Below are positions 5,942-60,975 of a stretch of DNA of 64,000 nt, in pieces. The notes below the pieces were generated by a model that was given only the letters and a program-made list of their open reading frames with translations, did not search any database and was not told the DNA's origin. The stretch is from assembly GCA_020056635.1 (NCBI GenBank), contig JAGVHI010000024.1, forward strand, positions 2,317 through 66,316, in the 5' to 3' direction. The translations under genes were made by a program, and so were the position numbers. The stretch's first letter is position 1. Every line of letters begins with the position of its first letter. The DNA is from an archaeon (GTDB lineage Archaea > Micrarchaeota > Micrarchaeia > Anstonellales > Anstonellaceae).

Positions 5942-8900
5942 ATGAAAGAAGGGCAGGGCAGGGGGGGGAGGCCGGAAAGCCAGGGGCTTTACGGGACTAT
6001 TGCGAAGCAATCAGGACTAAAATCCGTGCAGATAAGGCCGAAAAAGGGGCAGGGGCTTTCCATTCCAAGGAGATTTACCAAAGCGGGAGAGGACCCGTAT
6101 TCGCAGTTCAAGTGGGAGCAGAGAAGCTCGGTGATTCGGAACCCGGATGGGTCCACTGTTTTTGAGATGAATGACATCGAGGTGCCCAGTTTTTGGAGCC
6201 AGGTTGCAACGGACATACTTGCGCAGAAGTATTTCAGGAAAGCAGGGGTGCCGCAGGCTGATTCTTCTGGAAAGCCCGTATTGGGCTCGGATGAGAAGCC
6301 CGTGCTGGGGGCTGAGAGGACGCTTCGGCAGGTAGTGGACAGGCTATCTGGATGCTGGAGGGAATGGGGGGAGAAGAACGGCTATTTCAAGTCCAAGGAG
6401 GATGCGCAAGCGTATGAGGATGAAATGAAGTACATGCTTGCTGCGCAGATGGCTGCCCCAAACAGCCCGCAATGGTTCAATACAGGATTGGCTTGGGCGT
6501 ATGGGATTAGGGGGCACCCGCAAGGGCATTATTATGTTGACCCGGAAACCGAGGAGCTGAGAGCATCTGAGGATGCATATACCAGGCCCACCCCACATGC
6601 GTGCTTCATACAGTCGATTCGGGACGATTTGGTGAATGAGGGGGGGATATTTGATTTGGTGACGCGGGAGGCCAGGATATTCAAGTACGGGAGCGGCACC
6701 GGGACCAATTTCAGCGTGCTTCGGGGGGGCGGGGAAAGGCTCTCCGGAGGGGGCAAATCCTCGGGCATGATGTCGTTTTTGAAAATCAATGACAGGGCGG
6801 CAGGGGCCGTGAAATCAGGCGGGACTACACGGCGGGCTGCAAAAATGGTGATTGTGGATTTGGACCACCCGGATGTGGAACAGTTCATAGAGTGGAAAGT
6901 GCAGGAGGAGCAGAAAGTCGCTGCGATGGTGTGCGGAAGCAGGATACTCAATAGGGAATTGAACAATGTGATGAAAGTCGCGCTTGAGCAGAAGAGCTCG
7001 GATTACAAGCGGAACGTCGCGCTCATGAATGCGGTGAATTCCGCGGCTGAGAAAAGCGTGCCCATGAGCTACATTTTGCGCGCGCTTGCGCTGGTGGAGC
7101 AGGGGCATTCGAGCATGGAATTGCCCGAGTACACTACGCATTACGAGGGGGAAGCGTATCAGACAGTGTCAGGGCAGAATAGCAACAATTCGCTTAGGGT
7201 GCCAAACAGCTTTGTGAAAGCGCTAAAGGAGGACGGGCCCTGGTCGTTCCATTTCAGGACTACTGGAGAGGTTTCAAAAACCGTGCGTGCAAGGGAGCTT
7301 TGGGACAGGATTGCGTATTGCGCATGGGCGTGCGCTGACCCTGGAATACAGTTCGATGATACGATAAACGAGTGGAATACGTGCCCGAATGACGGTAGGA
7401 TAAATGCCACCAATCCGTGCTCTGAGTATGTATTCCTGGATGATACGGCGTGCAACCTTGCAAGCGTGAACCTCGGGAAGTTTTTGGATGAGAGGAGCGG
7501 GCAGTTCGATATCGAGGGGTTCAAGCACGCGTGCCGGCTCTGGACGATTACACTTGAGATTTCAGTGCTTATGGCGCAGTTTCCAAGCAAGGAGATTGCG
7601 CTTAGGTCTTATGAGTACAGAACACTGGGGCTGGGGTATGCAAACCTTGGGACAGTGCTTATGGTATTGGGAATCCCTTATGATTCTGATAAGGGGAGGG
7701 CGATTGCAGGCGCGCTTACCTCAATCATGTGCGGGGAGTCATATGCAACGAGCGCGGAGATGGCAGGCGTGCTTGGCGCGTTCCCTGGCTATGAGAGGAA
7801 CAAGGAGCACATGCTTAAGGTGATGAAGAACCATAGGCTTGCATCGTATAATGCAGAGAGCAGCGCATATGAGAAGCTCACAGTCACTCCGGTCGGGATA
7901 AATCCGCAATCGTGCCCGCCTGAATTGCTTTCTGTGGCAAGGGAGTGCTGGGACAGGGCGCTTGCAAACGGGGAGAAAAACGGGTATAGGAATGCGCAGG
8001 TGACCGTGATTGCGCCCACTGGAACAATAGGCTTGGTGATGGATTGCGATACTACAGGGGTTGAGCCTGATTTCGCGATTGTGAAATTCAAGAAATTGGC
8101 AGGGGGCGGGTATTTCAAAATCGTGAACCAGAGCGTGAGAAAAGCAATGGTCAGGCTTGGGTACGCTTCGCAGCAAATTGATGAGATGGAGAATTATTGC
8201 AGGGGGCATGGGACATTGGTAGGATGCCCGTATGTGAACCCTGAATCGCTTTCCTCAAAAGGGTTCACGAAAGAGGCCATTGCCGCGATTGAATCCCAGC
8301 TGCCGAACTCGTTTGACTTGAGGTTCTCGTTCAACAGGTACACGCTTGGCGAGGCGCTGTGCTCAAAGCTCGGGTTCACCCCCCAGCAGCTTGCGGACCA
8401 GAAGTTCAATGTGCTTCGCGCGCTCGGGTTCACAAAGGAGCAGATAAAGGAAGCGAATGAATACGTGTGCGGGACCATGACAATTGAGGGGGCGCCGCAC
8501 CTGCGTGTTGAGCACTATCCGATCTTCGATTGCGCGAACCGGTGCGGCAAGATTGGGGTGAGGTGCATAAATTACATGGCGCACGTGCGCATGATGGCCG
8601 CGGTGCAGCCGTTCATTTCCGGCGCGATTTCCAAAACCATAAACATGCCAAATGAGGCCGGGATTGAGGATGTGAAGAAAGCATACATGGAGAGCTGGAA
8701 TATGATGCTAAAGGCGCTTGCGCTCTACCGGGACGGGAGCAAGCTCTCGCAGCCCCTGAACACTTCTGTGGATGAGGAGGAAGAGGAGGAGAAGCCGAAA
8801 GCAGGGGTTACGCTTACGCTCACAGGGCAGCCTGCTTCCGTGCCTGCCGCGCCGGTTGCAGCCTATGCGTACAACAAAAAGCCGCTCCCGAAAAAAAGGA

Positions 8901-15111: not shown

Positions 15112-15130
15112 AACTTTTCCGTCGGCATGT

Positions 15131-15256
15131 TTCTTTTTGGGGGTGAGCCCTCAGCCCCTTTGGAGAGGGAGTTACGGAAGAGCGAGAAGTTTTCCGTCAA
15201 ATTCTTTTCTTTTGGGGTGAAACCCTCAGCCCTTTTCTTTTCCCAAAAGAAAAGGG
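15131..15256 (-). repeat. tRNA-associated structured element, copy E5 (3' trailer of tRNA-Pro)
   Basis: On the minus strand, hairpin CCCTTTTCTTTT-GGG-AAAAGAAAAGGG is followed by purine tract AAAAGAAAAGAA. Two related hairpins follow, GGGCTGAGGGTTTCACCCC and GGGGCTGAGGGCTCACCCCC. The element begins 8 nt after the tRNA-Pro discriminator. Confidence 0.6.
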
Positions 15257-15264
15257 ATATGGGA

Positions 15265-18091: not shown

Positions 18092-18320
18092 CCCGCCATA
18101 GCTCAACCTGGCTAGAGCGCCTGGCTGTAGTCTGCCAAATCGGCCTTATGCGATTGCGCATGTGGTCATCAGGAAGTTGTGTGTTCAATAGCCCTTTTCT
18201 CTCTCCGAGAGAAAAGCCCTCGTGGAAAAGAGAAACCATTTGGCGAAAAATATCCGCTTCGCGCGGTTTTTTCGCGCTGATAAAAGTCTCTTTTCGGCTG
18301 AACCAATCACACTGGCGGGA
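18092..18320 (+). tRNA. tRNA-Tyr (anticodon GUA) with two introns (229-nt gene)
   Basis: Acceptor CCCGCCA/TGGCGGG with the archaeal C1:G72 pair and discriminator A. D arm GCTC-AACCTGGCTA-GAGC. Anticodon stem CCTGG/TCAGG, loop CTGTAG|intron 18131-18167|A. T stem GTGTG/CACAC, with the T loop TTCA|~18188-18304|AAT interrupted. Confidence 0.8.
18188..18304 (+). repeat. tRNA-associated structured element, copy E1 (T-loop intron of tRNA-Tyr)
   Basis: Modules: CCCTTTTCTCTCTCCGAGAGAAAAG hairpin, GGAAAAGAGAAACC purine tract, GCGAAAAATATCCGCTTCGCGCGGTTTTTTCGC hairpin. The junction is ambiguous by 1-2 nt because of flanking A residues. Confidence 0.7.
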
Positions 18321-18357: not shown

Positions 18358-18511
18358 GCCTCGGTAATGTAGTGGTCTAGCATTCCGGCCTGTCGCAAGG
18401 CCCCTTTTCTTTCTTAAAAAGAAAGAAAATGCCCCTGGGTTCAAAAGAAAGAAACGGATCCAGCAACCTTGCAGAAAGTCGGCAACCCGGGTTCGAATCC
18501 CGGCCGAGGCG
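18358..18511 (+). tRNA. tRNA-Asp (anticodon GUC) with 81-nt canonical-position intron
   Basis: Acceptor GCCTCGG/CCGAGGC, discriminator G. Anticodon stem CCGGC/GTCGG, loop CTGTCG|intron 18396-18476|A. T arm CCGGG-TTCGAAT-CCCGG. Intron ends pair as GCAAGG/CCTTGC. Confidence 0.85.
18396..18476 (+). repeat. tRNA-associated structured element, copy E4 (short form, tRNA-Asp intron)
   Basis: CCCCTTTTCTTTCTT-AAAAAGAAAGAAAATG hairpin plus AAAAGAAAGAAAC purine tract. The third hairpin module is absent. Confidence 0.6.
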
Positions 18512-36028: not shown

Positions 36029-36158
36029 AAAATCACTTCGTTGTTCTGGGAATTGGTGCTAATAAAGAGTTGTCACGAAAATAAGCCCTAAGCCCCGGAG
36101 CGATATCGACATCCTTTTTATCCCCGCGCCCGCAAACTAAACTGCCTGCCCCTGTAGC

Positions 36159-36307
36159 AGGGCCTTTCTTTTCCTCCGGAAAAGAAACCCCCGAGAAAGA
36201 AAAGAACCATGACCGCGAAAAATATCCGCTTTTCGAGCAGGTTTTTTCGCCCAAGAAAATCGCCATGTCATTAGCTTTTTTATCTCTCGTCTCGAAATCA
36301 GAGTTAT
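36159..36307 (+). repeat. tRNA-associated structured element, copy E2 (flanked by duplicated tRNA-Thr 5' end)
   Basis: GGCCTTTCTTTTCCTCCGGAAAAGAAAC hairpin, GAGAAAGAAAAGAACC tract, GCGAAAAATATCCG...GGTTTTTTCGC hairpin. Its 3' part TTATCTC..CAGAGTT is shared with copy E3. Bounded by TGCCCCTGTAGC on both sides. Confidence 0.65.
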
Positions 36308-36403
36308 GCCCCTGTAGCTCAGCAGCAGAGCGCCTGTCTTGTAAGAGCATAACGCCCAATTCAGGAAAACAGGAGGTCGCGAGTGCAATCCTCGCCGGGG
36401 GCT
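36308..36403 (+). tRNA. tRNA-Thr (anticodon UGU) with 24-nt canonical intron
   Basis: Acceptor GCCCCTG/CGGGGGC. D arm GCTC-AGCAGCA-GAGC. Anticodon stem CCTGT/ACAGG, loop CTTGTA|intron 36344-36367|A. T arm GCGAG-TGCAATC-CTCGC. The D and T loops are atypical. Confidence 0.8.
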
Positions 36404-60768: not shown

Positions 60769-60975
60769 TGGACTGGATGGGATTTCTGGGTGGCTAAAAC
60801 TCTGAGATAAGAAATATTTCTGGGTGAAAAAACCTGAGCGCGTGGCGCTCGGATATTTTTCATGCTCCCGGTTCTTTTCTTTCCCAGGGCTTTCTTTTCG
60901 CGGAGCGAAAAGAAAGGCCTGAACCCATGGCCTCTTCGTTGCGAACGAAGCGATCTACCGCTGATCTACCAGCCC
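60769..60975 (-). tRNA. tRNA-Ala (anticodon CGC) with 135-nt T-loop intron
   Basis: Acceptor GGGCTGG/CCAGTCC with G3:U70, discriminator A. D arm GATC-AGCGGTA-GATC. Anticodon arm CTTCG-TTCGCAA-CGAAG. T stem ATGGG/CCCAT with T loop TTCA|60785-60919|AAT. Confidence 0.8.
60785..60919 (-). repeat. tRNA-associated structured element, copy E3 (T-loop intron of tRNA-Ala)
   Basis: GGCCTTTCTTTTCGCTCCGCGAAAAGAAAGCC hairpin, GGGAAAGAAAAGAACC tract, and TGAAAAATATCCGAGCGCCACGCGCTCAGGTTTTTTCA hairpin. Confidence 0.7.

Follow-up and report, generated by a model that had tools for sequence, protein, structure and literature searches.

Three copies of a small hairpin lie within a 64-kb stretch of archaeal DNA (the window: 64,000 nucleotides of contig JAGVHI010000024.1, assembly GCA_020056635.1, positions 2,317 to 66,316 of the forward strand), and they raise the question of whether this hairpin is a selected structure or neutral intron sequence and, if it is selected, what it serves. 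The contig is dense in genes, has a G+C content of ~51%, and encodes proteins nearest to those of Micrarchaeota / Micrarchaeia (DPANN). An earlier note, made from the sequence of the window alone, had argued for a selected RNA structure. Our comparative evidence indicates that the hairpin is a real structure under selection. We also found that it is not free-standing: it caps a long purine:pyrimidine helix in a family of 80-160 nt insertions tied to transfer RNA (tRNA) genes.

The three hairpins lie at the positions first noted:

18243..18275, plus strand: hairpin copy 1, GCGAAAAA-UAU-CCGC-UUCGC-GCGG-U-UUUUUCGC; 52.5 bits; -15.2 kcal/mol, z -2.2
36215..36250, plus strand: hairpin copy 2; 64.8 bits (covariance model); z -3.35
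60825..60862, minus strand (read from 60862 to 60825): hairpin copy 3; 56 bits (covariance model); z -4.5

On their own, the hairpins have folding energies between -13 and -17 kcal/mol, and dinucleotide shuffles put their z-scores between -2.2 and -4.7. Their two conserved halves, GAAAAATATCCG…GGTTTTTTC, occur together exactly three times in the window. The 12-mer GAAAAATATCCG itself has exactly three occurrences in the 64 kb, all without mismatch, where simple arithmetic over both strands (128 kb) gives ~0.008 expected exact 12-mer matches; with one or two mismatches it is found at chance level (8 seen, 6.4 expected). The claim that the hairpin recurs in copies of an element stands, as do the comparisons that the earlier note had drawn among the copies: the outer stem GAAAAA/UUUUUC and the UAUCC motif are unchanged, the base of the stem changes from GCG/CGC, shared by copies 1 and 2, to UG/CA in copy 3 (a C-G pair replaced by U-A, with one A-C mismatch below), and the apical parts differ between copies, every one being self-complementary.

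Seven further hairpin copies were found in four genomes of related uncultured Micrarchaeota. With each species represented by one genome, a scan for the exact pattern produced 83 matches, four of them real and all four in the metagenome-assembled genome (MAG) 'archaeon DeMMO2_7' (JAGVIA01); the other matches are terminator-like chance hits (≤31 bits). Under the covariance model, true copies score 51-65 bits and chance matches to the exact pattern in bacteria ≤31 bits. Other loci (L087, L088, L094 and L095) were fetched via neighbouring proteins. The copies and related modules in these genomes, by locus, are:

L071 (DeMMO2_7): copy in a tRNA-Ile(GAU) intron at the canonical 37/38 site, whose bulge-helix-bulge (BHB) is of textbook form
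L031 (DeMMO2_7): copy in the 37/38 intron of tRNA-Glu(CUC)
L082 (DeMMO2_7): copy in a T-loop intron of tRNA-Ser(CGA)
L025 (DeMMO2_7): copy cut by the contig end
L088 (GCA_053535515.1): copy in the tRNA-Ala intron orthologous to that of the window; flanking protein 80% identical
L088(-): antisense copy just after tRNA-Ala, flanked on either side by direct repeats of 22 nt (91% identity) that match the tRNA end together with its 3' flank
L094: copy in the orthologous tRNA-Tyr intron; flanking protein 74% identical
L087 (87% relative): orthologous tRNA-Ala intron with the mirror-repeat module (described below) kept and the hairpin reduced to the remnant ATCCGCAGG
L095, 10913-11068: hairpin-less antisense module amid three repeats of the tRNA-Gly 3' end

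No copy was found in ~90 kb of more distant Micrarchaeota (L091-L093, L096 and two extra loci, L097-L099) or in a scan of viral contigs. A metagenome scan gave three matches, none of them credible: two are chance matches (L084 and L086), and the third (L085), a near-perfect hairpin at 36 bits, lies in an open reading frame of an unrelated contig and was treated as chance.

The hairpin was aligned over eight copies and 16 pairs, with 500 shuffles as the control. Standard pairs form in 95.5% of the cells of this alignment, and 7 of the 16 pairs show changes on both sides, versus 3.0 ± 1.2 in the shuffles (0/500). When the pairing partner was shifted by 1-3 columns, pairing amounted to only 35-60%. 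RNAalifold, the check proposed for an expanded alignment, independently predicted the same two helices. With ~10 copies in total from ~5 related genomes, some of them paralogues or orthologues, the covariation is good and lies below an R-scape-grade statistic.

The fold consists of an outer helix, (G)CG plus an A-run paired with a U-run plus CG(C), that closes on the core 5'-AAUAUCC / 5'-GGUUU, with a replaceable G+C stem-loop above. The core is invariant in all copies; the apical stem is freely replaced. The outer stem GCGAAAAA/UUUUUCGC has the variants UGAAAAA/UUUUUCA (window copy 3), GCGGAAAA/UUUUCCGC (L088(+)) and GUGGCGAA/UUCGCCAC (L088(-)). In all three run lengths (A5/U6, A4/U5 in L088(+) and A2/U3 in L088(-)), the U-run exceeds the A-run by one, which fits a probable pair between the A of UAU and the U that opens the run; two single U would then be bulged. 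The alternative register modelled by RNAalifold (A-U, U-G, C-G, then a C/A mismatch) may apply instead, since the core columns never vary.

Eight whole elements, drawn from four genomes and six tRNA hosts, were aligned, and no invariant block in them is longer than G-AAAATATCC, which makes up the 5' half of the hairpin core; variation is seen in module A, in the linkers, in the apical stem and in the tails. The window's tRNA-Ala intron and its L088 orthologue have kept the core; the apical stem has been replaced and one A-U pair has become G-C. In the L094 tRNA-Tyr orthologue, the core is kept despite a 49-nt nested insertion. That insertion (L094 3643-3691) lies directly after UAUCC, is flanked by a 4-nt ATCC repeat and carries two extra stem-loops; the outer stem and core are intact. 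Depending on the copy, the two conserved halves lie 9 to ~68 nt apart, so they would be read together only in a folded single strand and not as a duplex-DNA site. The compensatory changes, the invariant internal-loop core and its place as the element's longest invariant block thus bear out the view that this is a selected structure, not neutral intron sequence.

Two proposed identities for the motif found no support. The k-turn bound by L7Ae-type proteins is not present: in 10 of 10 copies the UAU bulge is followed by CC paired to GG, and neither strand carries GA/AG. Comparison with Rfam 15 assigned the hairpin to no family; only tRNA was found at the gathering threshold, and when the cutoff was relaxed to E ≤ 10, no match overlapping the hairpins exceeded 18 bits. 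Reading through the elements for box C/D and H/ACA features, we found no C box (RUGAUGA) and only sporadic CUGA, in the tails, and Rfam again gave nothing; guide-like complementarity was not seen either. As a general feature, an internal cleavage site of the BHB or bulge-helix-loop type was rejected, since it fits copy 1 only (3-nt bulge, 4 bp, loop); elsewhere a 1-nt bulge follows 2 bp. Two promoter assignments were also rejected. The 5' half of the hairpin, GCGAAAAATATCC, was considered as a B recognition element (BRE)/TATA promoter, but the actual tRNA promoters look like TTTAAA, TTTTTAA or TTTTATC, 23-35 nt upstream of tRNA 5' ends. For a tail promoter driving a separate 3' exon, as in a split gene, TTATC-type boxes occur only in window elements 2 and 3 and in L088, and these would leave no leader for trans-splicing. 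With respect to miniature inverted-repeat transposable elements (MITEs), the elements have no terminal inverted repeats, only internal hairpins. Literature searches found no description of such elements.

The hairpins of the window belong to larger elements, and these in turn to tRNA genes. In the list below, Y1, R1, R2 and Y2 are the pyrimidine and purine tracts of the element:

18092..18320, plus strand: tRNA-Tyr(GUA) with two introns, an unrelated canonical 37/38 intron (18131-18167) and a T-loop element
18188..18304, plus strand: long-form element 1, an intron in the T-loop (57/58) of tRNA-Tyr(GUA), boundary uncertain by 1-2 nt; Y1 18194-18203, R1 18207-18216, R2 18224-18235, hairpin, Y2 18287-18295
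60769..60975, minus strand: tRNA-Ala(CGC), G3:U70 present, interrupted by element 3
60785..60919, minus strand: long-form element 3, an intron in the T-loop (57/58) of tRNA-Ala(CGC) that has an orthologue in L088; Y1 60916-60905, R1 60901-60890, R2 60885-60872, hairpin, Y2 60814-60802
36147..36158, plus strand: orphan direct repeat TGCCCCTGTAGC (tRNA-Thr -1 to +11), 100% identical to 36307-36318, spacing 160
36159..36306, plus strand: long-form element 2, not an intron, between two TGCCCCTGTAGC copies and directly upstream of tRNA-Thr(UGU); Y1 36165-36174, R1 36178-36187, R2 36192-36206, hairpin, Y2 36275-36289 (which holds TTTTTTATC)
36307..36403, plus strand: second direct repeat and intact tRNA-Thr(UGU) with its own short canonical intron
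18396..18476, plus strand: short-form member without hairpin, the canonical 37/38 intron of tRNA-Asp(GUC); Y1-R1-R2 module 18405-18453
15203..15256, minus strand: hairpin-less, non-intronic Y1-R1-R2 module, 8 nt downstream of tRNA-Pro(UGG)

Of the six tRNA genes in the window, five thus carry or touch a member of the family, and none lies elsewhere in the 64 kb. The earlier note had missed this context: copies 1 and 3 are in tRNA introns, copy 2 lies outside any intron, and some members of the family have no hairpin.

Removal of the elements in silico restores the interrupted genes. With both introns removed, a 75-nt tRNA-Tyr results that ARAGORN recognises; in unspliced DNA, this gene is missed entirely by both ARAGORN and the Rfam tRNA model. 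The 3' part of tRNA-Ala, AATCCCATCCAGTCCA, which includes the G3:U70 pair, was found 135 nt downstream, and once 60975-60920 and 60784-60769 are joined, ARAGORN accepts the product, a tRNA-Ala of 72 nt; on genomic DNA, ARAGORN and Rfam make only a truncated or wrong-ended call. ARAGORN also calls the tRNA-Asp(GUC) spliced in silico, and accepts the spliced tRNA-Ile of L071, tRNA-Ala of L088 and tRNA-Tyr of L094.

The family has a modular anatomy. On the tRNA sense strand, the order from 5' to 3' is Y1, a loop UCC, R1, a short spacer, R2, a linker, the hairpin, a second linker, Y2 and a tail. Y1:R1 forms a pyrimidine-purine hairpin of 10-12 bp that lies between GCC/GGCC and GCCC and at whose foot the C-C mismatches are conserved; the linker 3' of the hairpin often contains GAAAUAU; and the last bases of the tail are complementary to the end of the 5' exon, which would form a BHB-type splice site. 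In minimum-free-energy folds of the three window elements and of L071, L082 and L088, Y1 pairs with R1, R2 pairs with Y2, and the hairpin stands on top of R2:Y2. The tails of several copies share GAAAUAU, TTATC and TCAGAGTT (window 36275-36306 and 60814-60785(-), L088 7274-7305).

R2 is the mirror image of R1: of the 11 copies that are informative, all 11 have A-run lengths (a,b) in R1 and (b,a) in R2. Because the tracts vary from copy to copy, Y1, R1 and R2 have changed in concert. Homopurine repeats in mirror orientation are the classic sequence for triplex or H-DNA formation, and the homopurine module found here, with a short spacer between its halves, has a sequence of this type. The module is found in the window at 18194-18235, 36165-36206, 60916-60872(-), 18405-18453 and 15256-15203(-), and also in L031, L071, L082, L088 (both strands), L094 and L095. 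In the short-form members, R2 is without any Watson-Crick partner.

Elements inside tRNA genes would have to be cut out as BHB-type introns by the archaeal splicing endonuclease and ligase. At the L071 junction, CUGA/UCAG can be read by eye as the central helix, and UA|g and aa|A as the bulges. In the folds of T-loop copies, whose intron boundaries are uncertain by 1-2 nt, the 5' site lies in a 3-nt bulge between UGGGU/ACCCA and GGC/GCC, and the 3' site is without a clear outer helix. A broad-specificity epsilon2 EndA is reported for Candidatus Micrarchaeum (PMC3488258); among the 35 window proteins scanned there is no EndA, and no search was made beyond these. Because hairpin-less members occupy intact tRNA genes (the window tRNA-Asp and L087), the comparison indicates that splicing does not need the hairpin.

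The distribution of the elements indicates that the family is, or was, mobile, because close relatives differ in its presence and absence. At L090, where the flanking protein is 86% identical, tRNA-Asp is intronless (L090 12-84 versus window 18396-18476) and no module follows tRNA-Pro (L090 3425-3552 versus window 15203-15264(-)); these empty sites point to recent gain or loss in the family. Further marks of mobility are the strict association with tRNA genes, the direct-repeat-flanked copies, and a near-identical 52-nt hairpin region in three different tRNA genes of DeMMO2_7. Direct repeats accompany the three non-intronic copies (12 nt, 22 nt at 91% identity, and 12-14 nt), and the intronic copies are without them. 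For L088(-), the repeats lie at 7316-7337 and 7426-7447, and the 3' flank of the window tRNA-Ala is the corresponding empty site. The direct-repeat copies of the window and L088 resemble DNA-level insertion events; the repeats may be target-site duplications or the products of short-homology integration or of recombination.

What, then, does a hairpin serve that splicing does not need? Our favoured reading, which we hold tentatively at a probability of roughly 0.45, is that the hairpin is a cis-acting recognition site for a trans-acting factor and serves the element itself rather than exon ligation. The invariant kinked core would be read in a folded single strand, most likely RNA; the host splicing endonuclease and ligase would remove the element from the pre-tRNA; and the site would serve the propagation or the maintenance of the element, or else the fate of the excised, probably circular, intron. 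Selection appears to act in place, since orthologous resident copies keep the hairpin through compensatory changes. All eight intronic copies have one orientation relative to the tRNA, and the non-intronic copies occur in both orientations; the single orientation of the intronic copies favours the RNA level. What the comparison establishes is the fold and how conserved it is, where it lies in the element, and the family's mobility and its ties to tRNA genes. Action at the RNA level is only inferred, because sense and antisense strands fold equally well, with no asymmetry in G-U content and almost no informative G-U pairs in the stems; the same holds for the binding of a factor, and for the link to propagation, as inferences from comparison.

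Several points weigh against a recognition site in RNA. Its support is wholly comparative, and a hairpin of single-stranded DNA may apply instead, given the equal folding of both strands. The ~10 copies from ~5 related genomes include paralogues, and gene conversion between these may make the conservation look greater than it is. When 35 window proteins were scanned against Pfam, housekeeping genes alone appeared, with no recombinase, transposase, integrase or reverse transcriptase. Finally, T6 would be expected to end archaeal transcription within the intron, and the favoured reading leaves this run unaccounted for. Sense-strand runs of T4-T6 are present in all intronic copies (for example, window 18266-18271 and 60827-60832(-), and L094 3581-3586), while the tRNA genes themselves end in such runs; either oligo-T termination may be weak in this lineage, or the introns may attenuate their host tRNAs.

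A bolder reading, which we regard as doubtful, is that the family is a still-active mobile BHB intron targeting tRNA genes, in which the hairpin would be the cis site for the mobilising machinery and the mirror repeat would form a triplex for insertion or RNA stability. Such an element would survive in tRNA genes through host splicing, and its landing at a tRNA end would leave the direct-repeat-flanked copies. If true, this would be the first concrete sequence handle on the spread of archaeal tRNA introns.

The hairpin could instead act in DNA, as a single-stranded structure recognised by the enzyme that moves the element, in the manner of IS200/IS605-type elements; its conservation would then reflect selection among copies for mobility. 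The resemblance to IS200/IS605 ends and their miniature derivatives lies in a conserved hairpin, some bases of which are extrahelical, on a repeated element that is small and non-coding. The insertion polymorphism, the direct-repeat-flanked copies in both orientations relative to the tRNA, and the equally good folding of both strands are also in keeping with a DNA signal, as is the finding that the recently spread, near-identical DeMMO2_7 copies all have the hairpin and that hairpin-less members appear to be old or decayed residents. However, the direct repeats are 12-22 nt long and variable, whereas IS200/IS605 elements make none, and the elements differ from that group also in being specific for tRNA genes, in lacking a fixed target tetranucleotide, and in that neither tnpA nor tnpB lies nearby. 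The 35 window proteins scanned include no transposase, and terminal inverted repeats are absent. The shared orientation of the eight intronic copies is as expected of a constraint at the RNA level, and the compensatory changes in orthologous resident copies imply continued selection in place. We therefore consider a signal in DNA unlikely.

It is less probable that the hairpin is passive architecture, that is, a stable cap that compacts a long intron so that the splice sites meet, with its conservation due to recent ancestry and gene conversion. Its position at the end of the R2:Y2 helix would suit a cap, the apical part is exchangeable and tolerates the 49-nt insertion, and the copies come from a narrow clade. 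Yet what is invariant is the internal-loop core rather than the stems. No segment of the element is more conserved than this core, the neighbouring helices having turned over completely, and its conservation persists between genomes whose flanking proteins are 74-80% identical. Moreover, hairpin-less members are still found in intact tRNA genes.

The last alternative is a transcription terminator or attenuator, in which a G+C stem followed by T6 would halt archaeal RNA polymerase, and the upstream A-run would make it bidirectional, so as to insulate the element or throttle the interrupted tRNA. A run of T5-T6 is present in 9 of 10 copies, with T3 in L088(-); the tRNA genes of the window and its relatives end in T4-T6; and a consensus scan picks out copy 3 (both strands) and copy 2 (minus strand), though not copy 1. 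The copy 2 hairpin, moreover, lies between an upstream TATA-like box and TTTTTTATC, a second TATA-like box 23 nt before tRNA-Thr, an arrangement that fits a terminator-promoter cassette. The hairpin shares with intrinsic terminators, and also with Hfq/Sm-binding 3' modules, a G+C stem-loop that U6 follows and an upstream A-run, the latter as in bidirectional terminators. We nonetheless judge termination very unlikely. At least seven copies lie inside introns, 30-60 nt upstream of a needed 3' exon and not at the end of a transcription unit. One of them interrupts tRNA-Tyr(GUA), which has the sole Tyr anticodon, and efficient termination there would be lethal. Every T-run faces an A-run of matching length, a sign of pairing and not of a free U-tail. 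The hairpin also has an invariant asymmetric internal loop, whose UAUCC plays no part in oligo-T termination, and L088(-) keeps the core with T3 only.

Comparison with known systems places the hairpin, as we read it, as a new RNA or DNA motif within spreading BHB tRNA introns, an already known kind. In Thermoproteales, related introns at 37/38 and at non-canonical sites of different tRNAs were described by Fujishima et al. (2010), with transposition by an unknown and presumably DNA-level mechanism (as summarised in PMC4090602). The elements described here share with those transposed BHB introns the occurrence of related sequences at both canonical sites and non-canonical ones in different tRNAs within one lineage. 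The Thermoproteales introns are short and have no reported conserved internal hairpin, whereas the present elements are 80-160 nt long, modular and found in DPANN Micrarchaeota; some, moreover, lie away from exons, between direct repeats that match a tRNA end. New here are the intron size and modular architecture, the conserved hairpin, the homopurine mirror repeat, and the occurrence of intronic beside direct-repeat-flanked copies.

Functional RNAs are known from archaeal tRNA introns: the intron of tRNA-Trp carries a box C/D guide RNA, and excised introns are normally circularised (PMC12558985). Like these, the hairpin is a conserved structured module dispensable for splicing itself; unlike them, it has no C/D (RUGAUGA/CUGA) or H/ACA boxes and no k-turn. 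The non-intronic copies recall a different precedent, the tRNA-Thr gene of Caldiarchaeum, which was disrupted by a mobile element that left a tRNA fragment behind (PMC3293823). As there, and as in pNOB8/SSV-type integration, a tRNA fragment is duplicated beside an intact gene, and close relatives differ in presence and absence. Here, however, the insert is only ~90-150 bp and carries no recombinase gene, and members of the same family are also predicted to be spliced introns.

How archaeal tRNA introns are gained and moved is an open question, for which the published evidence is similarity among short introns (PMC4090602). One small clade now offers long modular introns, sister copies outside exons, filled and empty sites, and a hairpin that splicing can dispense with, and this makes the question testable. 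There is also a practical consequence: the tRNA complements of such DPANN genomes will look incomplete, because standard tRNA finders miss or truncate these genes, as with the window tRNA-Tyr and tRNA-Ala.

Three further features of the loci deserve mention. Copy 2 is neighboured by a phosphoglucomutase gene, and TTTTTTATC within its element, 23 nt before the 5' end of tRNA-Thr, resembles the TATA-like boxes of other tRNAs here; because of this position, element 2 may supply the tRNA-Thr promoter. Downstream of tRNA-Pro, at 15120-15230(-), a unit GGCTGAGGG(T/C)T(T)CACCCC followed by AAAAGAAA is present twice, ~70 nt apart. At L094 3818-3853, an intronless tRNA-Asp is followed, 2 nt past its 3' end, by a Y1:R1 hairpin (GGCCCTTTTCTTTGctccGCAAAGAAAAGCCCC) that is near-identical to the opener of the L082 intron; given this match, the first module of the intron may derive from, or double as, a tRNA 3'-trailer hairpin.

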